40,500 nt of DNA, from UHGV virus genome UHGV-0090882; one strand, 5' to 3'. Shown here one piece after another: positions 3,477 to 35,016 of this stretch. Positions within the stretch are counted from its first letter, which is position 1, and every line of letters starts with the position of its first letter. Below the pieces are notes generated by a model. The model saw nothing but the letters and a program-made list of their open reading frames with translations. It did not search any database and had not been told where the DNA came from. Origin of the DNA: a virus. The translations under genes and the position numbers were made by a program.

Positions 3477-3504
3477 ACCCGCAAAATATTGCGGGCTTTT
3501 TTTT
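3477..3504 (+). terminator. Plus-strand rho-independent terminator abutting the tailspike stop
   Basis: Stem CCCGCAA / TTGCGGG followed by C and T8. On the minus strand the hairpin is not followed by a U-run, so it is not the tailspike terminator. Confidence 0.4.
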
Positions 3505-6500
3505 AACGTTCTTCCAGAGACTGAATCCGCTCTTTTATCTTATCCATTTCTCTGCGCTGCCATGCTGCCTCGATATAGAATAAGAGATCAGGTCTGACCC
3601 CCCATCTAGATCCTGCTGGCGTTATTTCAACGCGCTCAATGATGTCTTCCATTACCATCACTGGATTATCATCCTCATCAACAATGATGCTCCCGTCATT
3701 ATCAGTCAGCGGCATTTCCCTTTGGCCAGTAATGACGTCATCATATACTGCGGGATAATCGTCATAGCAAAGAAAGGCATAGCGGCATGTTGTGCTTTCT
3801 TCTTCCATGAGTCCGTGAGAAATAAGAACATCACGAAGTTGCTGCGCGATTACACCATGATGTATCCTCGCCCCTTCTTCCCCCTTTATAGCGACAGCGT
3901 TCAGCCATTTATAAGCGATATACCTGACGTCACCCCAGGCATCCAGCAATGCTTCGTCAGGAGAGACCGGCTCTGTCTTTAATGTTCCGTCACTGGTAAC
4001 CACAGGATTGGAGCCAAGATAAACTGTCGAGAACCTGTTTCCCGGACCACCAAGAGCATTTACATTATCAAGATAAGGTTTAACATCTCCGTTCTCAAAA
4101 AGATGTTCGAGTGCGTTATATACCGCGCGACGTGGAGTACTGCTTCCGGAACCATGCAACGTTATCATTGCACCATCTGCTGAAGACGTTGTTTCACCGC
4201 CGCTAACGATTAATCTCTGAGCGGTAACATCATCAGACGGTACTTTCTTCGCAATAATGGCGTAATTACCCTCAAGTTTGACTTCCGCGCGAACTTGTCC
4301 TGATGTACCTGCATGGACAGTCAGTGACTGGACGGCAACATCATCTGTGAAATCAACGGGTACAGGAACCGTCCTCACGCCTGACGTCGACATAAAAGTA
4401 GGAAGCGTTCTGTTAGGAGTGGCTCCGTAGACAAAATCCCTTGAAACAAATTCTTCCTGTTTAATTTTCACCCTGAAACAATACAAATCAGCCGGGTGAC
4501 CATCGTGAACATAAGGATATTTTCTGTTGTTATCCCCTATGCTCCATGGGTTTAGAAAGTCTTCCCCACCGAAAATGTAGTACAGCCAGTTGTCTTTGAT
4601 ACAAACTGAACCAACACCAACCGCAGAGTTAACTATTCCGCCCTGATAAATCTGATCAGTAACATTAACCCACTCTACATTATCCAGACTCCACTCATTG
4701 ACGTTAACTCTGGTCATAAATGTTCTTGGATAATTTCCTGCATAACGGTTATCAGGTTCTCCTCCTTCCCACTCACCAAATGCGCGCTCACTGCCAAAAA
4801 TAATCAGCTCATCGCCAACTTTGGCAAAAGGAAGGTTTGAGTGATGAACATTATTTGGGAAGCGAAGAGAATTCCATGATGTACCTAAATCAGAGCTTCT
4901 GTGCAATGAACTACCGGGTTGAGTACTTAATGTCCCCCTGGTCGTCAGATACAGAATGCCATCATAATATTTTACACATGGCTCAGATGCATTCGCCTCA
5001 TATTCTGCAGGTATGCGTCTGCGAACAAAGCTACCAGGAGAACCGAAAGCATCAGAGAAATAGAGTATCCCAAGCTCGCGTGGACCAATATCACCATTAT
5101 GGTAGCCAACAGCAAAACTGTTATCGCTAATCGTCGCAAAACTGTGAATCTCAGTAACAGGAGTGCTTCCGTCAACAAAAGAAGGAATAGTTCCAAGACT
5201 GGTTTTTCTCCATGGTGACGAGTGAAATGATGTACCAAAACTCCAGTATCTACCCTCGTTATTCTGATCCACATCCTGGGTATTTTGCGTCGTAACTGTA
5301 AAAGTATTTTTATCAATAACAGTAGTCACCGTCATATTCCCGGTAACACCTGTAACACCAGAGTTTGAGAAGTTGACAAAATCACCAGCAAATAATCCGT
5401 GATCAGTAATGCGAATATAAGCGACTTGCTGATTTGCTGCTTTCGTTATACCACCATAAACGCGAAGGCTGCGACTCATTGGGCGATCCCACAACTCTGC
5501 AACCTGCAGTTTATTTCCGCTCACGGTCCGCGTCTCAATTACAGCAAAAAGGCGATTTCTGACAACCCCCATACTCATGCAGTGATAGTTAACTGTGGGA
5601 TAGTTTTCATGTAAATCTGTAAGCCATTCCGGCGTTGTCCAGGTCTTCCCGTCATCTCCTGAGCGAACCCATGCAACATGGAGGTTATTTACACCATGGC
5701 GGTCTCCAGCCATAAAAGGCGCATAGATGACATTGTCATATACAAACGTTTTATCCTGCGTCCAGGCGTTGTACCACGGTGTATCTGTAATTTTAAATAA
5801 CTCTCCCTGGATAAAATCTTCAGAAGCATAAAAAAGAGGCTGGCCCGGTATTCTCTCAAATAAAAAACGAGCATTTTTAAATCGACTGACATCCGGAAGA
5901 GTTGATACTTTAAAAGTAAGCCCTAATCCGTCAATTTTATAACCTGGAGATGAGGCTTCAAGGCACGCGCTTATTGCAGTGGAATCGTCATTTATACCAT
6001 CACCAACAGCTCCAAAATCTTTGGGGCTAATAGCATCACGCATTTTATCTTGGAACGTTCGGTACACAGCCCCAGAACCATACTGAATAAACCAACCAAA
6101 ACCACCAACAACCCCGGCGATTGCAGCATCGACATAATTACGCATTGAGCGATTATTTACAGCATCCTGCTCAAGTGATGGATCTGCAAGGTTAGAAATT
6201 CTGTTTTGCTTTGCATCGTAATATTTTGCAAGCAGAGAGGGCTTCATCAATGCACGTCTGAACCACCCAAAACATTGCTGGATCAGCATCGTCAGGTAGT
6301 CAAAGGCATCTTCATGCACTTCGGGGAAAAATTTTCCCTGATTGCGAAGGTCTGTCTCCTGCACTACATCAAGCACACGATCTATCGTAATTCGCCATCC
6401 AGTAGCAAGCGGAGACGGAAGAACCACAGAACCGCCACTATAAGTGCCCGCCCCAGTTACCGTATAACCGGTATCCAGAACCAATTCTGTTACGTTTCCG

Positions 6501-6622
6501 TTCAGGTCAGACACCTGAACAACCAGGTCTGATTTTCTGAAAATTCGAAAAGTATACGGAAACGATGTCGTAACGCCGTTACCGGTGTATTCGTTGTGGT
6601 CAACTTCGGTTGAGACCGTCAT
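3503..6622 (-). CDS. Tailspike: putative endo-N-acetylneuraminidase (endosialidase) with C-terminal intramolecular chaperone domain
   Basis: 1039 aa. N-terminal virion-attachment domain; two sialidase Asp-boxes (SGDDGKTW, SSDLGTSW); C-terminal region ...ARIHHGVIAQQLRDVL... resembling the self-cleaving chaperone of endosialidases/T5 fibres. Confidence 0.65.
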   Translation of the reverse strand: MTVSTEVDHNEYTGNGVTTSFPYTFRIFRKSDLVVQVSDLNGNVTELVLDTGYTVTGAGTYSGGSVVLPSPLATGWRITIDRVLDVVQETDLRNQGKFFPEVHEDAFDYLTMLIQQCFGWFRRALMKPSLLAKYYDAKQNRISNLADPSLEQDAVNNRSMRNYVDAAIAGVVGGFGWFIQYGSGAVYRTFQDKMRDAISPKDFGAVGDGINDDSTAISACLEASSPGYKIDGLGLTFKVSTLPDVSRFKNARFLFERIPGQPLFYASEDFIQGELFKITDTPWYNAWTQDKTFVYDNVIYAPFMAGDRHGVNNLHVAWVRSGDDGKTWTTPEWLTDLHENYPTVNYHCMSMGVVRNRLFAVIETRTVSGNKLQVAELWDRPMSRSLRVYGGITKAANQQVAYIRITDHGLFAGDFVNFSNSGVTGVTGNMTVTTVIDKNTFTVTTQNTQDVDQNNEGRYWSFGTSFHSSPWRKTSLGTIPSFVDGSTPVTEIHSFATISDNSFAVGYHNGDIGPRELGILYFSDAFGSPGSFVRRRIPAEYEANASEPCVKYYDGILYLTTRGTLSTQPGSSLHRSSDLGTSWNSLRFPNNVHHSNLPFAKVGDELIIFGSERAFGEWEGGEPDNRYAGNYPRTFMTRVNVNEWSLDNVEWVNVTDQIYQGGIVNSAVGVGSVCIKDNWLYYIFGGEDFLNPWSIGDNNRKYPYVHDGHPADLYCFRVKIKQEEFVSRDFVYGATPNRTLPTFMSTSGVRTVPVPVDFTDDVAVQSLTVHAGTSGQVRAEVKLEGNYAIIAKKVPSDDVTAQRLIVSGGETTSSADGAMITLHGSGSSTPRRAVYNALEHLFENGDVKPYLDNVNALGGPGNRFSTVYLGSNPVVTSDGTLKTEPVSPDEALLDAWGDVRYIAYKWLNAVAIKGEEGARIHHGVIAQQLRDVLISHGLMEEESTTCRYAFLCYDDYPAVYDDVITGQREMPLTDNDGSIIVDEDDNPVMVMEDIIERVEITPAGSRWGVRPDLLFYIEAAWQRREMDKIKERIQSLEER

Positions 6623-6725
6623 GTTAAATCTCCAGATAGTCGCAGCACCCGTTGCGCCGCATATCTGGTTATTCTATTACCTGGAAAACCACATATGGAT
6701 AGAAAGGCTGTAAATACGAATAGAT

Positions 6726-6742
6726 ATTACCTTTCAGGTAAT
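6726..6742. promoter_or_regulatory. Operator-like 17-bp palindrome ATTACCTTTCAGGTAAT (site 1)
   Basis: Perfect inverted repeat TTACC-N5-GGTAA upstream of the antirepressor promoter. Confidence 0.5.
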
Positions 6743-6778
6743 TTGCAAAACGTGCTGGATAGCAAACAAATTATTTGC

Positions 6779-6798
6779 TACTGTATAAATATACAGTT
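6779..6798 (+). promoter_or_regulatory. LexA (SOS) box TACTGTATAAATATACAGTT
   Basis: Exact CTGT-N8-ACAG with AT-rich spacer, about 20 nt upstream of the start of 6818..7075. Confidence 0.7.
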
Positions 6799-6817
6799 AT
6801 TGCATGGAGAAGATAAG

Positions 6818-7075
6818 ATGCAGCAGTATCACTATCCACTGGAAGACGGATTTACCGAAAGGATTCACACGCCGGGAGGCGTCAGGTCACTGGTGGAGGG
6901 ATCGCACTTGATGAAATTACTCCGGGATCTCGATAAGGATGGATTTAATGTCGATGGCCCACTTGCCGAACTGACTGCACTGATTAACTACGTCACCAGC
7001 TCACAGATGTCTATGCAGGATCTGCAAACACATCTCGACTATTGTGCCGAACAATTACGAAAACAAACCAGATAA
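6818..7075 (+). CDS. Small SOS-controlled protein, antirepressor candidate
   Basis: 85 aa from ATG 6818 (GGAG 9 nt upstream). Residues LMKLLRDLDKDGFNVDGPLAELTALINYV...DLQTHLDYCAEQ are paralogous to the C-terminus of the Bro-N protein at 7391..8101. The track start at 6695 lies upstream of the LexA box. Confidence 0.55.
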   Translation: MQQYHYPLEDGFTERIHTPGGVRSLVEGSHLMKLLRDLDKDGFNVDGPLAELTALINYVTSSQMSMQDLQTHLDYCAEQLRKQTR

Positions 7076-7105
7076 GGTTTGCAATTACCAAATGGAGTGC
7101 TTATA

Positions 7106-7122
7106 TTTACCTTTGCGGTAAA
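7106..7122. promoter_or_regulatory. Operator-like palindrome TTTACCTTTGCGGTAAA (site 2)
   Basis: Inverted repeat inside a larger inverted repeat (GGAGTGC ... GCACTCC). Confidence 0.45.
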
Positions 7123-7212
7123 TTTACATCGCACTCCTCTTGTGCCATAGTAATCGGGCACTGGCAAAATCCAGTGCCGGGATTGGCGTCCCGAGTTACT
7201 AAGTGGCGCATA

Positions 7213-7234
7213 CCACGCCAGACGTGGTTTTTTT
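7213..7234 (+). terminator. Putative weak rho-independent terminator
   Basis: Stem CCACG / CGTGG followed by T7. Confidence 0.35.
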
Positions 7235-7390
7235 ATGCGTTAAGCACAGCTATATCCGAATTATGGTGGGCTGGGCAGGGGTCCGAAAGGACGCCGGTAC
7301 CACTTAGGCCGGTACGCCAACCTTGTCCAGTTCACCACCAGTAATTGGCGTTGCGGTGGTGATTAAAATCACTAAGTGGAGATAACCACC

Positions 7391-8101
7391 ATGGCTAATG
7401 CTCAAACTGCCATCTTCAAATTTGAATCTGTTAACCCTATCCGTTCCATCATTATCGATGGCCAACCATGGTTTGTAGCCCAAGACGTTTGTAGTGCGCT
7501 GCGTATCCAAAACGTCACCCAAGCACTTGAAAAACTGGATGATGATGAAAGGTCTATGTTCAACATAGGGCATGAACATCGTGCAATTTTTGACAGCCGA
7601 GTAAAAGAGATCAACATCATCTCCGAGTCAGGCCTCTACACACTGATCCTCCGCTGCCGCGATGCGGTGACACCAGGCACTACCCCCTACCGCTTTCGTA
7701 AATGGGTTACAGGTGAGGTTCTTCCTCAGATCCGCCGCACCGGAAGTTACATTAAAAACTCGCTCCCGCAGGAAGAACGCATAAAGATGGTTGCCGACCA
7801 GGTAGCCAGCGCCACAGCATCAGCAGTGATGCAGGCAATGAAGGTAGAGAACAAAACCTACAGCGCCCCACTGAAGCCCGGCTACCGCAGCCTGATTCAT
7901 TCGCCGTCTGGTGTTCTCGGCCTGACGGAGAACTCACTGCTGATGAATCTGCTGAACCAGTTACAGGAAGACGGGCACGACGTATCGGGCGCGGCGGCGG
8001 AACTGACCACCATGTTCTGCTACATCGTCGGTGTGAGTAAATGCCTGCGTGATATCCAGACCCACGCGGAATACATCAACGACAAGGCAGGGGTCTTCTG
8101 A
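7391..8101 (+). CDS. Antirepressor, Bro-N domain protein
   Basis: N-terminus FKFESVNPIRSIIIDGQPWFVAQDVCSAL...ISESGLYTLILR is Bro-N-like; C-terminal domain paralogous to 6818..7075. ATG at 7391. Confidence 0.6.
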   Translation: MANAQTAIFKFESVNPIRSIIIDGQPWFVAQDVCSALRIQNVTQALEKLDDDERSMFNIGHEHRAIFDSRVKEINIISESGLYTLILRCRDAVTPGTTPYRFRKWVTGEVLPQIRRTGSYIKNSLPQEERIKMVADQVASATASAVMQAMKVENKTYSAPLKPGYRSLIHSPSGVLGLTENSLLMNLLNQLQEDGHDVSGAAAELTTMFCYIVGVSKCLRDIQTHAEYINDKAGVF

Positions 8102-8172
8102 CGGGCGGCGGCACAGGGATGTGCCTTTAAATAATTCTGTACGATTGCAGACAGGGGGGTGAATAGAGTACT

Positions 8173-8189
8173 ATTACCTTACGGGTGAT
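8173..8189. promoter_or_regulatory. Operator-like palindrome ATTACCTTACGGGTGAT (site 3)
   Basis: One mismatch to the palindrome; left 14 nt identical to site 11. Confidence 0.4.
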
Positions 8190-8317
8190 CCATAGCGATT
8201 AGGCACCGATACAGGAGGAGCCCACATGAGAAAATTTGACGAGTACGAAGGCGTTTAACATTCGGATAGTTTAATGACGGGGCCATTAGGCCCCGTTTTC
8301 ATGTCTGGAGACAGTTT

Positions 8318-8857
8318 GTGTTAAGTGAAGAAATGCAATTTGCCATGGCTGTGGCTCAAATCGTAAGTGCAGTCGCGGTTTCGCTTGGCTTGTTCATAGC
8401 TATCGCTACTATTATTTATAATGTAAATACAGCGAGAAAAGTACACACTTCAGTATTCCTTGGTGAAAGCAGGTTTGATGTAGATTATAAGAAAGGCCTA
8501 TCTACTATGCGCCGCATTCACGAATCGAACAAATCATTCCGCTCTTATATGTATCCAAGCAATGGGCAGGCTGATCTTACGGATGAAGAAAAGATAGAGA
8601 AGAGAGAAATAATTTACTGTCTAGGTTTCTACGAACGCATGGCTGTGAGCGTGAAGCGGAAAACTTATGATGAGACCATGATTAAGGAAGTATTTTACAG
8701 CTCCGTTGTAAATAACTATCAGATTGCGCTACCTCTTATACAAGCTATTAGAGAAAAAGAAAACATAAACACATATTTTAAAGAATATGAATGGTTGGCC
8801 ACACGATGGAAGGATTGTCCATTGAAGGATAAATCCCCGTGGTACAAGTTTTGGTAA
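8318..8857 (+). CDS. AT-rich moron: membrane-anchored protein of unknown function (candidate superinfection-exclusion/abortive-infection effector)
   Basis: Opposite strand to flanking virion genes; one N-terminal TM helix then a ~140-aa soluble domain; own terminator; visibly lower GC than neighbours. ATG at 8333 may be the true start. Confidence 0.6.
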   Translation: MLSEEMQFAMAVAQIVSAVAVSLGLFIAIATIIYNVNTARKVHTSVFLGESRFDVDYKKGLSTMRRIHESNKSFRSYMYPSNGQADLTDEEKIEKREIIYCLGFYERMAVSVKRKTYDETMIKEVFYSSVVNNYQIALPLIQAIREKENINTYFKEYEWLATRWKDCPLKDKSPWYKFW

Positions 8858-9443: not shown

Positions 9444-11918
9444 TTATTGCGGAGTGACATCCTGAGGTCGCCACCAGTATGTCTGATTAAACTCTTTCTT
9501 CGAACGTTGCTCCATTTTACGCAAATAGCCTGGTGAAAAATACTCCTGCATCTGGTTAAAGATCATATGATCGAGAGCCGCCTTTAAGTACCAGAGATTC
9601 GCACCTGGCATCAAACCTTTCCCCAGCTTCACCAGATCACCACCAGTCTGCTCACTCTTCCCTTCCACAGCATTTAACGGTATGCCCTGAGCAATCTTCA
9701 CTACGTCATCAACCAGACCAGCTACCGGGCCAAGCATCGACGCCAGCGCGCCGCTTCCGTACCTAGTGTGATCTGACAATAAAAAGTCACCGTAAAGGCC
9801 AAGGCCACCACCTTTCAGTAGAGCACCAAGCCAGAATTTTGCGGCACCTTCTCCTGTCATCTCTCGAGGATTACGACCAGACGCAAGGTCGTTAAGTTGC
9901 TGCGACAAAGCGCCAAGAATGGTCGTACTGGCAATAAACGTCGCAATATATGCCGCACGCCCACCAGCAGACGGCATACCCATAGCGCGTGACCAGTGAC
10001 GCATAACAACCGAGATAGGGAACGATTTAAACAGGAAAACACTTCTCGTTAATTCACCTTTCCATGTTCCACGCTGAATACCAGAACCGGTTATCAGTTG
10101 CTCACGTGCTCCCGGTGTAATAACAGCCATATCAACTTCTTCAGTTACGGCACCGAGCAGTTTACGCATTGCCTCAAATTTCACTCGTTCAGGCTCACCA
10201 AGATGTTTAACTGCTGAATCAGGGATACGCATAATGCTTTCCGGTGTCAGCATCGTATTATTACCGTTCCCCCAGTCCTCCTGTTGCGCCAGCTTCCATA
10301 CGCTCCAGTCTGTGTCAGTAATCCCTTTGCTTTTCAGGATACGAAAATCAGAGTCATCGAGGCTACGAAGGTCTGGTGTCCGTGACACTACTTCTCCCAG
10401 GCTTCCCATCATGGTTACGCCATAGGCGCGCTTGTGCGCATCTGACCATGCTGTAAGCCCACTGGCACGCATTACGGCCGTTGCCGCCCAACGAGACACT
10501 GACGGCCCCATATTATCCATCGCCCAGCGGTTAACGCTGCCAAGTAGAGATTCCATCGCCAGACCAGCGCGGCGCGCCCGCGCAAGTTCTGTACGGTTCG
10601 TTGGGTCCATAGCTTCAAGCTGGTTGCGGAATAACTGGTTCATTGGAAGGTTGGTAACCTTCGCAGACAGATACATGGTTCCAAGATCAGAGAACGATGA
10701 CAGCAACGCGGATCCGAGTCTGCTGGCAACCAGCCAGTTGCGGATATTGTCAGACCATCGCGCGATGTGCGGATTCGCTACAGGCTGTGTCTTTCCAGAA
10801 ATAAAGTTGTACAGATTCTCTGTGTTGTTCGCCAGCCGCTCGACTTTACCGGTTTTACTCGGGTTAGCTGTTGCCGTTTCTGCCTTAACCTGATCAAGAA
10901 GGGAGCGGAAAACATGATCGGGGTTTGGGCCATATGTTTCCACCAGTGCAATATCTTTACTGATACCTTCCAGGTGACCGACCATGATTTCCCATAGAGA
11001 GCGATCGCCATAAAGTTGCTGATATTGCAGATAGGAATCTGCATCTTTGAAATGTATCTGTCGTGATGCATTACCACGGTTAGCACGTGCGCCGGAAATT
11101 CGCATTCCGGTATCAGTAAGCTTATTCAGCCCACCAGTAGCGATCGTGTTATAAGCCTCTCCAAGAAATGCAGACAACTCGGCATCGTTCATCAGTTGTC
11201 CATCGGCTCGGGTATAATATTTGCGATCCAGCTTACCTATAACATCGCTAACCCATTTATCTTTTGATACCGCCCCAACCTTTTCCATAGAATGATGTTG
11301 AGGGATCCCCCAGTTTTCGAGATAGCCAATGTCCCCACCAGCATCATTAAACCGGCGGCGGAGTAGATCTGTCACTTCTCTCCACGCCTTAGCACCTTTT
11401 CTTGCTTTAGCATTGCCAGTATTTTGCCCTCGCATTTCATATACCAGGTCACGCACGCCCGCTTCATCTTCAAACAGGCCAAAAAAGCGAGGATCAACTG
11501 CTTCGAATGCCTCCTGCAATTGACTCAATGCATAATCACGAGTGGCTTTTGTTCTGGACTCAACAGAGAGGAAATTCGATTTACCGTCTGCATTAAAAGC
11601 AATAGTACGGTTAAGAGCGCCAAGTTTCCCATCAGCCCCTTGATAGCTATTGATAAATTTATCCAATCTCTGACGTGCGGCTATAGTAAGAGCCACACGA
11701 CGTTTCTTTAATGCCGCTTCTCGCTGTAATTCTTCAGATGCCAATTGTGCTGCACGATACAGCCGCTCTGACTCGGAAAGTTGTCGCCACGACATAGGGT
11801 CATCACGAGCAATGGAGCGCATATTGCGATAAATGCGGTCTTCAATGTTCTGTATTTCTCGCGCCGTTAACGTGCGCTGCGCCGCCTGCTGGACCGCTTG
11901 TATACATTCCTGTCTCAT
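9444..11918 (-). CDS. Large internal virion / DNA-injection protein
   Basis: 824 aa in the block of large proteins between the tail tubular genes and the tailspike, matching the position of T7-type internal core proteins. Confidence 0.5.
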   Translation of the reverse strand: MRQECIQAVQQAAQRTLTAREIQNIEDRIYRNMRSIARDDPMSWRQLSESERLYRAAQLASEELQREAALKKRRVALTIAARQRLDKFINSYQGADGKLGALNRTIAFNADGKSNFLSVESRTKATRDYALSQLQEAFEAVDPRFFGLFEDEAGVRDLVYEMRGQNTGNAKARKGAKAWREVTDLLRRRFNDAGGDIGYLENWGIPQHHSMEKVGAVSKDKWVSDVIGKLDRKYYTRADGQLMNDAELSAFLGEAYNTIATGGLNKLTDTGMRISGARANRGNASRQIHFKDADSYLQYQQLYGDRSLWEIMVGHLEGISKDIALVETYGPNPDHVFRSLLDQVKAETATANPSKTGKVERLANNTENLYNFISGKTQPVANPHIARWSDNIRNWLVASRLGSALLSSFSDLGTMYLSAKVTNLPMNQLFRNQLEAMDPTNRTELARARRAGLAMESLLGSVNRWAMDNMGPSVSRWAATAVMRASGLTAWSDAHKRAYGVTMMGSLGEVVSRTPDLRSLDDSDFRILKSKGITDTDWSVWKLAQQEDWGNGNNTMLTPESIMRIPDSAVKHLGEPERVKFEAMRKLLGAVTEEVDMAVITPGAREQLITGSGIQRGTWKGELTRSVFLFKSFPISVVMRHWSRAMGMPSAGGRAAYIATFIASTTILGALSQQLNDLASGRNPREMTGEGAAKFWLGALLKGGGLGLYGDFLLSDHTRYGSGALASMLGPVAGLVDDVVKIAQGIPLNAVEGKSEQTGGDLVKLGKGLMPGANLWYLKAALDHMIFNQMQEYFSPGYLRKMEQRSKKEFNQTYWWRPQDVTPQ

Positions 11919-25490: not shown

Positions 25491-25519
25491 TTGACATTTA
25501 ACGCACAAATTATTACCTT
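25491..25519 (+). promoter_or_regulatory. Putative plus-strand promoter (TTGACA -35) driving the non-coding region and tRNA
   Basis: TTGACA at 25491-25496 followed by an AT-rich -10 region (AATTATTACC) that overlaps operator site 4; same layout as the early-left promoter at 34973. Confidence 0.4.
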
Positions 25520-25528
25520 TCAGGTAAC
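25512..25528. promoter_or_regulatory. Operator-like palindrome ATTACCTTTCAGGTAAC (site 4)
   Basis: Core identical to site 1. Confidence 0.5.
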
Positions 25529-25849: not shown

Positions 25850-25926
25850 GTGGCATTAGCTCAGTTGGACAGAGCAACCGCCTTCTAAGCGGTTGGTCGC
25901 AGGTTCGAATCCTGCATGCCACGCCA
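25850..25926 (+). tRNA. tRNA-Arg (anticodon UCU), phage-encoded
   Basis: Full cloverleaf readable by hand: acceptor GTGGCAT/ATGCCAC, D-stem GCTC/GAGC, anticodon stem ACCGC/GCGGT with loop CTTCTAA, T-arm GCAGG-TTCGAAT-CCTGC, 3' CCA encoded. Confidence 0.9.
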
Positions 25927-26011: not shown

Positions 26012-26089
26012 ACAGCAGGACGCCATTGCGATGACTTCATGCTGTAAACCAGTACAGCCACGGAAGGCATAACTCATTGCTTCCAGTTC

Positions 26090-26129: not shown

Positions 26130-26501
26130 ATGAGTGACAAAGACATTGAATCTGAAATTCAGGCTAAAGGTTTAGCCGCGCCGCGCGTTACGCCAGACCA
26201 TATCGAGAGCATTATTGCTCAGGAGGCATATTTCACAGCAGAAGATGGTGTCTTTGGCGTAGCCATAAAAGCGAAACATACTGGCGGAGAGGTAAACTAC
26301 CAGCCGCACGAATCACTTTCTCTGCTGACGTTCTGCGTTCTGGTGCTGCGCAACGGCTTCACCGTCACCGGAGAGAGCGCCTGTGCAAGCCCGGAAAACT
26401 TTGATGCGGAAATTGGTCGGAAGATTGCCCGGCAGAATGCTGTAAACAAAATCTGGATGCTTGAAGGTTACTTGCTGAAGCAGAAGTTAAGCGAGCAATA
26501 A
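26130..26501 (+). CDS. Gp49-like phage protein (N4 gp49 / Sf6 gene 66 family), function unknown
   Basis: 123 aa; C-terminal block LRNGFTVTGESACASPENFDAEIGRKIARQNAVNKIW recalled as that family. RBS AGGTGA. Confidence 0.5.
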   Translation: MSDKDIESEIQAKGLAAPRVTPDHIESIIAQEAYFTAEDGVFGVAIKAKHTGGEVNYQPHESLSLLTFCVLVLRNGFTVTGESACASPENFDAEIGRKIARQNAVNKIWMLEGYLLKQKLSEQ

Positions 26502-33911: not shown

Positions 33912-34142
33912 TCATGAGTAGAAGAAGTATGCCAGTTCTGCTTTTGAGCGCAGCCATTGTCTTGTTTTACAGGCTTTAAAAAGACCATTCATCAATACTT
34001 TACCTGGCATTTTGCGCTTACCTGTTAAGTGAGTCTGGATATAGTGACTCGTCGTTCCGGCTTCCTGTGCGAAGGCTTCACGCTCATCCGGAGTAAGTGC
34101 AAGCCAGTGCTTTTTGAAATCGAAATGTCCGTTATCGCTCAT
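33912..34142 (-). CDS. Cro-like small HTH regulator (YdaS/Cro type)
   Basis: 76 aa, divergent from the repressor gene, HTH-like segment, first gene of the replication-direction operon. Confidence 0.5.
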   Translation of the reverse strand: MSDNGHFDFKKHWLALTPDEREAFAQEAGTTSHYIQTHLTGKRKMPGKVLMNGLFKACKTRQWLRSKAELAYFFYS

Positions 34143-34209
34143 AGCTATTGCCTGATATTTATTTCAGATAATAAATATTCACCCATAAGGTAACAAAAAT
34201 CAAGGATAG

Positions 34210-34226
34210 TTACCTATGGGGTGCAT
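34210..34226. promoter_or_regulatory. Operator-like site GTTACCTATGGGGTGCA (site 9)
   Basis: Left 10 nt as in site 7; degenerate right arm; in the divergent cro/repressor interval. Confidence 0.35.
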
Positions 34227-34243
34227 TTACCTGTTGGGTAATA
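34227..34243. promoter_or_regulatory. Operator-like palindrome TTTACCTGTTGGGTAAT (site 10)
   Basis: Abuts site 9, giving a tandem pair in the divergent promoter region. Confidence 0.45.
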
Positions 34244-34296: not shown

Positions 34297-34881
34297 ATGA
34301 AAAGTATCCAGGACGTCCGCAGGCAAAATCTCAACGACTTGATCGACCGTGAATTCAATGGTGTTCAGACGCGGATGGCAGAAAAACTTGGAACTCAGGC
34401 AAATCTGGTAAACCGCTGGGCTCTTGGCAAGAAGGTTATCGGCGACCAGGTTGCGCGAAAAATTGAAGCTGCCGCCAATAAACCCCGTAACTGGCTTGAT
34501 ATCGATCGCTCGCTTTCTCAGGAAGGTTTTCAGCCTGTCGGCCCAAGCGACATTGGTCAGCTAGCGGCTCACAACCTGGAACGCTGGATGAGCGAAAGCC
34601 GCGACCTTTCAACACAGGGAAAACTTCACCGCGCATCCGGCGTCGCCCAGGTGACAATCAGCCGCCTGTTAAACAATGAGGTCAGCGTTTCCATTTCCAC
34701 CCTGGAGAATGTTGCATCTGCATTCGGGCGTCACGGATATGAACTACTGATTCACCCGCACGATCCTGCAACTATCAACTATGACCGCTCGCGCTACGCA
34801 TTGTTACCTGAAACCGAGAAAGCAAAGATCGAAAGTTACATTGAATTTGTCATCAACCAGAACGAAAAAAACAAACAATAA
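34297..34881 (+). CDS. Prophage repressor candidate: two HTH domains, no autocleavage (S24 peptidase) domain
   Basis: 194 aa; HTH-like segments near residues 20-60 and 110-150; no G-(D/S)-SM-P / Lys peptidase motif; own terminator downstream. Confidence 0.55.
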   Translation: MKSIQDVRRQNLNDLIDREFNGVQTRMAEKLGTQANLVNRWALGKKVIGDQVARKIEAAANKPRNWLDIDRSLSQEGFQPVGPSDIGQLAAHNLERWMSESRDLSTQGKLHRASGVAQVTISRLLNNEVSVSISTLENVASAFGRHGYELLIHPHDPATINYDRSRYALLPETEKAKIESYIEFVINQNEKNKQ

Positions 34882-34937: not shown

Positions 34938-34954
34938 ATTACCTTACGGGTAAT
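34938..34954. promoter_or_regulatory. Operator-like palindrome ATTACCTTACGGGTAAT (site 11)
   Basis: Perfect; extends to a 19-bp palindrome AATTACC...GGTAATT; about 19 bp upstream of the -35. Confidence 0.5.
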
Positions 34955-34972
34955 TTTTTTAACTCATATCTA

Positions 34973-35001
34973 TTGACACCAAACCAAATACGCATAATTA
35001 T
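34973..35001 (+). promoter_or_regulatory. Early-left (pL-like) promoter
   Basis: TTGACA at 34973-34978 with -10 candidates in CATAATTAT 14-17 nt downstream; flanked by sites 11 and 12. Confidence 0.5.
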
Positions 35002-35016
35002 TACCTCAACGGTAAC
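35000..35016. promoter_or_regulatory. Operator-like palindrome ATTACCTCAACGGTAAC (site 12)
   Basis: Overlaps the -10/+1 of the early-left promoter; an extra GGTAAC half-site follows at 35024-35029. Confidence 0.5.

Follow-up and report, generated by a model that had tools for sequence, protein, structure and literature searches.

A predicted antirepressor region with an SOS-type and an RNA-gated module in tandem in an epsilon15-like Escherichia coli phage

The virus genome UHGV-0090882, whose 40,500 nucleotides (nt) constitute the stretch analyzed here (the window), derives from an epsilon15-like (genus Uetakevirus) temperate Escherichia coli phage or prophage. Between its tailspike gene (3503–6622, − strand) and a large virion gene (9444–11918, − strand) lies a locus on the + strand that contains a LexA (SOS) box, the gene ant for an 85-amino acid (aa) protein, an isrK-like leader RNA, a C4-type antisense RNA and a gene for a 236-aa protein with a Bro-N domain. 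Orthology, motifs, RNA families, complementarity and covariation were established directly in the analysis, and on these grounds we interpret the locus as an antirepressor (immI-like) region holding two antirepressor modules in tandem. The DNA from 6600 to 8300 is 98% identical to that of phage HEMP4 and 99.6% identical to that of a prophage of E. coli F11 with an endosialidase tailspike; it matches phiV10, TL-2011b and vB_EcoP_ZX5 (ZX5) at 91–95% identity, in pieces, and a match to it was present in 535 of the 5426 complete E. coli genomes.

The first module and the repressor on which it is predicted to act comprise the following features.

6727–6741, unstranded: Rep-type operator palindrome TTACCTTTCAGGTAA in the gap that separates ant from the tailspike start (6622, − strand); half-sites invariant in six Uetakeviruses
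6756–6784, + strand: candidate ant promoter, consisting of TGGATA (6756–6761), a 17-nt spacer and TACTGT (6779–6784); both hexamers invariant in a six-genome alignment
6779–6798, + strand: LexA (SOS) box TACTGTATAAATATACAGTT, single copy in the window; CTGT-N8-ACAG invariant in six genomes
6818–7075, + strand: ant, 85-aa small antirepressor, orthologue of SPC32H Ant according to tblastn, PDB 5D50_E and phrog_450
34297–34881, + strand: rep, 194-aa two-domain repressor lacking a peptidase domain, by comparison with 5D50_A, 5D4Z_A and the Rep proteins of SPC32H and phiV10

The ant reading frame runs from an ATG at 6818 to a stop codon ending at 7075 and is preceded by a Shine–Dalgarno sequence (SD), GGAG, at 6806–6809. 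Its product is 88% identical (tblastn) to that of the gene annotated as ant in the Salmonella phages SPC32H and SPC32N, and residues 2–84 match PDB 5D50 chain E, "Anti-repressor protein", with an E-value of 4e-47. The SPC32H gene, whose GenBank label is ant, occupies the same slot, with tailspike and virion genes on either side on the opposite strand. Searches of Pfam, NCBIfam and PADLOC gave no match for Ant, and nearly all E. coli records label the small ant gene "hypothetical protein".

Rep matches 5D50 chain A, "Repressor", over residues 1–190 (E = 4e-42). Its C-terminal domain is HTH_3-like and homologous to the C-terminal-domain crystal structure 5D4Z (5D4Z_A), with HTH_3 above the Pfam cut-off at residues 106–147; the N-terminal helix-turn-helix (HTH) is YdaS-like, scoring 21 bits against a Pfam cut-off of 30, and PHROG repressor families match residues 1–76. 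In Pfam, Rep matched HTH families only, with no Peptidase_S24 match at E ≤ 0.01, and thus differs from the lambda-type RecA-cleavable (LexA/S24) repressors in lacking a C-terminal Peptidase_S24 domain. The protein is 100% identical to Rep of phiV10. From the paired homology of Ant and Rep to the two partners in 5D50, we infer that Rep is the target of Ant.

Of the 20 positions of the LexA box, 18 agree with the E. coli consensus TACTGTATATATATACAGTA, and no other site in the window comes within three mismatches of it; the 20-mer itself occurred in none of 100 shuffles. The box is 19 nt away from the start codon (ATG) of ant, compared with about 160 nt from that of the tailspike gene. When the tailspike–ant intergenic regions of six genomes (the window, phiV10, SPC32H, epsilon15, Tyrion and BUCT711) were aligned, CTGT-N8-ACAG, the operator half-sites and TGGATA...TACTGT proved invariant while the flanks drift, and the window box aligned with the SPC32H box in the same place. 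Since the candidate −10 hexamer of ant falls within the box, we infer that LexA box and ant promoter overlap.

The CTGT-N8-ACAG core has two copies in the window against 0.63 expected. The second (CTGTAAACCAGTACAG, 26042–26057), situated between a transfer RNA (tRNA) gene (25850–25923) and an open reading frame (ORF) at 26130–26501, was considered as a LexA site and set aside, its GC-containing spacer marking it as probably a chance occurrence. An AT-rich CTG-N10-CAG palindrome, CTGATATTTATTTCAG, at 34152–34167 ends 10 bp upstream of the start of a cro-like gene (34142, − strand); this allele-specific palindrome, which the Tyrion allele also has and SPC32H and epsilon15 lack, may represent a weak LexA-like site or have arisen by chance.

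The palindrome next to ant is one member of a TTACC-N5-GGTAA family with 13 sites in the window versus 0.65 expected. All five genomes searched (the window, SPC32H, epsilon15, phiV10 and BUCT711) show such over-representation, with 13–18 sites each against approximately 0.5 expected, and in the epsilon15 RefSeq record sites of this family, including one upstream of the ant homologue, are annotated "protein_bind: repressor". The window and the four relatives searched have one and the same half-site, TTACC/GGTAA. Because it never varies, covariation with Rep is uninformative, and the assignment of these operators to Rep rests on their position, on the epsilon15 annotation and on the NLVNRW helix, which is conserved in Rep alignments and taken to be the DNA-recognition helix. 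Besides the sites at the two modules, the family includes the following.

8174–8188, unstranded: operator-like site TTACCTTACGGGTGA, with one mismatch, downstream of the Bro-N gene
34179–34241, unstranded: cluster of operators in the interval separating rep from the divergent cro-like gene (33912–34142, − strand), with sites at 34179 and 34227 and a degenerate middle site
34939–35015, unstranded: operator pair, 62 bp apart, around the TTGACA-17-CATAAT early-left promoter, found by the family search

The cluster between rep and the cro-like gene appears as three aligned sites in five genomes, and the 62-bp spacing recurs in phiV10, epsilon15, SPC32H and BUCT711; one Rep tetramer bridging two operators would fit such pairs. 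Pairs with this spacing stand at early promoters in every genome checked: 31833/31895 and 34939/35001 in the window and, in the loci of relatives, 31953/32015 and 35070/35132 (L005), 32555/32617 and 35907/35969 (L004) and 33604/33666 and 35972/36034 (L003). At 25491–25527, TTGACA is followed by an operator of the same sequence as that on the ant side (TTACCTTTCAGGTAA), facing the tRNA gene. Transcription of both the tRNA and the ORF at 26130–26501 may start from a Rep-controlled promoter here.

An earlier note on this DNA had described an exact LexA box about 20 nt upstream of the 85-aa gene, a repressor at 34297–34881 with two HTH domains and no autocleavage domain, and a position among late genes beside an operator-like site. 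The 19-nt gap to TACTGTATAAATATACAGTT, the HTH_3 domain at 106–147 with a weaker N-terminal HTH and no S24 match, and the tailspike/virion slot shared with SPC32H next to a site of the 13-member family all bear this out. Its further proposal, that induction proceeds through a LexA-derepressed antirepressor and not through a RecA-cleaved repressor, gains support from the SPC32H orthology (Ant at 88% identity, Rep aligning end to end with 5D50_A).

The isrK-like leader and the C4 RNA both fall within the 315 bp that separate the ant gene from the Bro-N gene. The features of the second module are these.

7107–7121, unstranded: another Rep-type operator, TTACCTTTGCGGTAA, separated by 1 nt from the −35 hexamer of the isrK promoter-like site
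7123–7151, + strand: promoter-like site TTTACA-17-CATAGT with a TG extension, beginning 1 nt past that operator
7158–7234, + strand: isrK-like leader RNA with two hairpins and an intrinsic terminator (7212–7234), scoring 67.2 bits with Rfam RF01394 (isrK Hfq-binding RNA; gathering score 50)
7183–7189, + strand: a1, UUGGCGU, in a hairpin of the isrK-like leader
7199–7206, + strand: b1, CUAAGUGG, in a hairpin of the isrK-like leader
7259–7342, + strand: C4-type antisense RNA, scoring 66 bits with Rfam RF01695 (clan CL00128; gathering score 45)
7300–7307, + strand: b', CCACUUAG, in a C4 hairpin loop, exact 8-nt complement of b1 and b2
7314–7320, + strand: a', ACGCCAA, in C4, exact 7-nt complement of a1 and a2
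7345–7351, + strand: a2, UUGGCGU, predicted C4 target by its complementarity to a'
7372–7379, + strand: b2, CUAAGUGG, predicted C4 target overlapping the SD GGAG (7378–7381) of the Bro-N gene, whose ATG is at 7391
7391–8101, + strand: gene for the 236-aa Bro-N::Ant-like protein, with Bro-N at aa 17–112 and the Ant-like C-terminal domain at aa 155–231

The start predicted for the promoter-like site, at about 7158, coincides with position 1 of the isrK model. In the phiV10 counterpart of the operator at 7107–7121 the entire operator is inverted (TTACCGCAAAGGTAA) with the half-sites retained. The layout of a1/b1, a'/b' and a2/b2 is that of the P1/P7 immI operon. Between C4 and the Bro-N gene we found no coupling ORF of the P1 icd or Gifsy-1 orf45 type, the Bro-N ATG following directly after b2; coupling in the style of Gifsy-1 orf45 was considered and rejected, as the AUG at 7263 opens 14 codons only and the UAG at 7305–7307 falls inside the C4 loop. 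A terminator scan detected none in the window from the ant stop codon to isrK, and SOS transcripts of ant should therefore also deliver the a1/b1 leader RNA.

DNA of the isrK–C4 type is present in more than 250 phage records, mostly of Stx phages. In ZX5, Hafnia phage yong2 and VT2-Sakai, the DNA for the C4/isrK RNAs is annotated with spurious coding sequences ("Ash family protein", "orf34"), at 1373–1486 in L013 (ZX5), 1288–1971 in L012 and 1563–1736 in L010.

The protein encoded behind these RNAs combines two domains. The Bro-N domain (PF02498, residues 17–112) scores 72.3 bits against a gathering score of 25.6 (E = 5e-20), and residues 155–231 match 5D50_E (E = 1.2e-13); among PHROG families the protein matches phrog_130, "anti-repressor Ant", as well as the Ant family phrog_450, and PADLOC and NCBIfam searches gave no match. 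Pairwise alignment (BLASTP) placed residues 2–75 of Ant onto residues 155–228 with 42% identity over 74 residues (E = 8e-16). The same architecture occurs in TL-2011b, Tyrion and a Klebsiella phage at 56–84% identity. Its counterpart in ZX5, ORF4, is 79% identical overall and almost identical from residue 77 on; when ORF4 was overexpressed, prophage counts fell from 10^9 to 10^6 per mL, a loss of lysogeny of about 1000-fold (PMC9782041). That study of the same locus is silent on LexA, SPC32H, the small ant and the RNAs (PMC9782041).

The earlier note had recognized the paralogy of the 85-aa protein to the C-terminal part of the Bro-N protein, and this holds, although the range it gave, approximately 170–236, is slightly narrow in comparison with 155–228. 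It had also treated 6726–8101 as one SOS module; that is apt for the ant part, but the Bro-N gene stands behind its own operator, promoter-like site, isrK terminator and C4 RNA.

The complementarity between C4 and its targets is conserved through change. HEMP4 has the b sequence of the window, CUAAGUGG. Homologous cassettes carry other b sequences: CUAAAAGG in phiV10, TL-2011b and ZX5, CUACAAAGG in Tyrion, CUAAACGG in a Klebsiella phage, GUUAUCGG in Salmonella phage 118970_sal3 and UCGCAAGAG in Hafnia phage yong2. Across six specificity types b1, b' and b2 covary three ways, some changes passing through G–U pairs, and in Tyrion a1, a' and a2 are also altered jointly. Computed energies of the C4 loop–target duplexes were most favorable for the cognate partner with seven of eight b2 targets, the exception being VT2-Sakai b2, and with all eight b1 targets. 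Together these data provide strong comparative evidence that C4 would pair with the ribosome-binding region of the Bro-N gene.

Comparison with ZX5 reveals how this specificity is exchanged. From 6700 to about 7196 the window equals ZX5, operator, LexA box, ant and isrK promoter-like site being identical; in comparison with ZX5 and phiV10, a sharp mosaic block follows at 7197–7616, the sequence being identical up to a1, then replaced by another allele and afterwards nearly identical again. The replaced block consists of b1, C4, b2 and the first ~75 Bro-N codons, and C4 specificity and the Bro-N N-terminus thus move jointly. The ZX5 repressor has been reported to be identical to that of phiV10 (PMC9782041). 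This sister phage therefore has the same Rep as the window and a different C4 specificity.

The distribution of the cassette sets it apart from ant. SPC32H, epsilon15 and BUCT711 have the small ant and lack both the Bro-N paralogue and the isrK/C4 cassette. In phiV10 a 16-bp deletion (window 7947–7962) frameshifts the Ant-like domain of the Bro-N gene, which accounts for the annotation of a 194-aa and a 29-aa ORF there, and the small ant is intact. In TL-2011b, a 242-aa Cys-rich ORF on the opposite strand (L008 666–1394, − strand) and a bidirectional terminator are inserted between ant and the isrK cassette. Being absent in three phages, broken in one and separated in another, module 2 behaves as an accessory, autonomous unit.

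For module 1, these similarities offer a likely explanation of prophage induction. Kim and Ryu (J Virol 2013) and Kim et al. (PNAS 2016) are said to have found that in SPC32H Rep is not cleaved on SOS induction and LexA represses ant; that one base change in the LexA box made SPC32N constitutively lytic; and that tetrameric Ant binds the C-terminal domains of Rep and disassembles the DNA-bound Rep tetramer. A review on Salmonella prophages, with reference to Kim and Ryu 2013, likewise describes LexA self-cleavage as giving rise to an Ant by which the repressor is inhibited (PMC7380047); another article describes Rep on DNA as a tetramer and tetrameric Ant as binding two Rep dimers (PMC9638917), and a preprint summarizes the switch in the same way (bioRxiv 2025.11.27.690993). 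The window shares with the SPC32H Rep/Ant switch (PDB 5D50, 5D4Z) the genus, the position of ant, the place of the LexA box, the operator family and a peptidase-less two-domain Rep. It differs in that SPC32H has ant alone, whereas the window adds the isrK/C4 cassette, the Bro-N::Ant-like paralogue and a DUF4760 gene after ant.

By homology to SPC32H, host LexA in a lysogen would occupy the box overlapping the ant promoter region; upon DNA damage LexA would cleave itself and the 85-aa Ant would be produced, bind the C-terminal domain of the tetrameric, non-cleavable Rep and strip it off the TTACC-N5-GGTAA operators, so that lytic promoters could fire. We put the probability of this sequence, from LexA cleavage through Ant production to inactivation of Rep, at roughly 0.85. 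The LexA–Ant–non-cleavable Rep switch itself is already established for the SPC32H orthologue; the tandem RNA-gated paralogue is an undescribed variant.

A number of observations weigh against this interpretation of the locus. A sigma-70 consensus scan upstream of ant returned nothing at threshold, and for this reason the ant promoter was placed from conservation only. Rep shares only 42% identity with SPC32H Rep. The operator at 6727 could act on ant, on the tailspike gene or on both, or could loop to the one at 7107. The Rfam model c4-a1b1 (RF03163) reaches 44.3 bits at 7145–7197, short of its gathering score of 46.7, the overlapping isrK model being the one that passes. Finally, the phiV10 deletion implies that at least one viable phage can do without module 2.

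Other temperate phages provide precedents for parts of the arrangement. In the immI region of P22 (mnt-arc-ant-sar), the antirepressor region lies among virion/injection and tailspike genes of a temperate podovirus and includes an antisense RNA layer. The antirepressor region of the window is similarly embedded, with an antisense RNA layer as well, but lacks Arc/Mnt homologues; its Ant is unrelated, and P22 c2 is RecA-cleavable. The authors of the SPC32H studies reportedly consider Ant structurally distinct from antirepressors of the 186 Tum, Gifsy/Fels and N15 AntC type. What these have in common with the window, as set out in the Salmonella prophage review, is a LexA-repressed small antirepressor inactivating a non-cleavable repressor (PMC7380047), although no sequence family joins them to the window Ant.

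For module 2 the closest parallels are P1/P7 and Gifsy-1. The immI operon of P1 and P7 (c4, icd, ant) is reportedly the subject of Citron and Schuster 1990. It resembles the window in having a C4-family RNA (RF01695) on the antirepressor transcript with a1/b1 upstream and a2/b2 downstream, b2 on a ribosome-binding site, an operator of the main repressor at the promoter, and allelic a/b specificities with an identical main repressor; a published account summarizes the P1 immI logic (PMC8201110). The window differs from it in lacking an icd-like upstream ORF, in having a b2 that masks the antirepressor's own SD, in an antirepressor unrelated to P1 Ant1/2, in using Rep and not C1 as the main repressor, and in belonging to an integrating podovirus. 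The Gifsy-1 isrK-orf45(STnc1160)-anrP locus shares an antirepressor-like gene, an isrK-family leader that has its own terminator, and read-through into a downstream RNA that is processed; in contrast to it, the window has no conserved orf45 coupling ORF and no adjacent AntQ. Acting in trans, the IsrK RNA of Gifsy-1 makes translation possible and sets off prophage induction (Hershko-Shalev et al. 2016, PMC4825925).

On the analogy of these systems, the Bro-N::Ant-like protein would be a second antirepressor under RNA control of the P1 immI or Gifsy-1 isrK type and not simply part of the SOS unit. The promoter abutting the Rep operator would produce the isrK-like leader, mostly terminated, with read-through transcripts carrying C4 and the Bro-N::Ant-like gene. 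As in P1, which also supplies the presumed direction of C4 control, a' and b' would pair with a2 and b2 and mask the SD, keeping the Bro-N protein silent unless C4 is outcompeted or non-cognate; as in Gifsy-1, an excess of the short isrK leader might relieve the C4 block and promote induction (PMC4825925).

A feed-forward cascade linking the two modules is plausible. In its first stage, SOS would remove LexA and the small Ant would release Rep; in its second, a1/b1 leader from two sources, the isrK promoter freed of Rep and the ant transcripts, would titrate C4 and unmask the Bro-N ribosome-binding site, and a second Rep-binding antirepressor would lock in induction. To this could be added P1/P7-style heteroimmunity among E. 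coli Uetakeviruses through exchangeable b alleles on an identical Rep background, as in the window and ZX5. We offer the complete scheme, which would be a previously undescribed two-stage cascade plus heteroimmunity through swappable b alleles, tentatively and regard it as rather doubtful.

Heteroimmunity of P1 and P7 arises from the same main repressor combined with differing C4 specificity. The cassette of the window might accordingly serve chiefly for anti-immunity or conflict between phages, in the manner of the P1/P7 immI operon, and not as a part of SOS induction, a view to which we assign a considerable chance, somewhat short of even. A resident C4 would then silence an incoming copy only where the b sequences match, and a relative with the same Rep and another C4 would break resident immunity. 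This view agrees with the window and ZX5 sharing operator, LexA box, ant, isrK promoter-like site and Rep while their b1/b'/b2 alleles differ as one mosaic block, with the existence of at least six b specificities, and with the autonomy suggested by TL-2011b, where an inserted gene and terminator split the cassette from ant. Such a role is, however, compatible with one in induction and does not exclude it, and in Gifsy-1 the resident prophage is itself induced in part through the homologous isrK locus (PMC4825925).

Alternatively, true antirepressor activity could reside in the Bro-N protein, with the 85-aa product serving only as a decoy or regulatory fragment that modulates it by hetero-oligomerization through the shared domain. 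The homology of the two domains would permit this, mixed oligomers are conceivable given the tetrameric Ant reported for this system (PMC9638917), and the ZX5 Bro-N protein alone gave an antirepressor phenotype (PMC9782041). Yet SPC32H, epsilon15 and BUCT711 possess the small ant with neither Bro-N paralogue nor cassette, the small Ant of SPC32H was by itself annotated and crystallized as an antirepressor, and it is the Ant-like domain of the Bro-N gene that phiV10 has lost while retaining an intact small ant, all of which makes a decoy improbable. Still less probable is that the LexA-like palindrome is a chance occurrence or a tailspike signal and that induction takes another route, such as Rep cleavage or turnover: the empty promoter scan and the divergent intergenic location would allow it, but the box is unique, near-consensus and absent from shuffled sequence, has stayed invariant in six phages despite diverging flanks, lies far closer to the ant ATG than to that of the tailspike gene, and is accompanied by a Rep that has no S24 domain.

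Downstream of the two modules, the + strand island continues. Just after the operator-like site at 8174–8188, the stretch 8213–8299 holds a 10-codon ORF (MRKFDEYEGV, 8226–8258), which has the strong SD AGGAGGA, and behind it an intrinsic terminator (8278–8299). An extra member of the island, a 179-aa DUF4760/phrog_2284 gene at 8318–8857 (+ strand), is absent there in SPC32H and phiV10 and may be a moron; its product had no match in PADLOC or NCBIfam. In Enterobacter phage Tyrion, the Rfam int-alpA RNA (RF02996) matches at 2605–2669 (− strand), unrelated to the locus.

With LexA-controlled production of Ant directed at Rep as the preferred reading of module 1, the present instance mainly corrects annotation. 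The broader significance would lie with the second module: in many relatives from E. coli, Enterobacter and Klebsiella, a C4/isrK RNA pair of exchangeable specificity appears to gate a second antirepressor directed at Rep. These phages may offer a tractable system for the layering of SOS and RNA-based immunity, for the role of the a1b1/IsrK leader, and for the breaking of immunity among prophages that share the same repressor.

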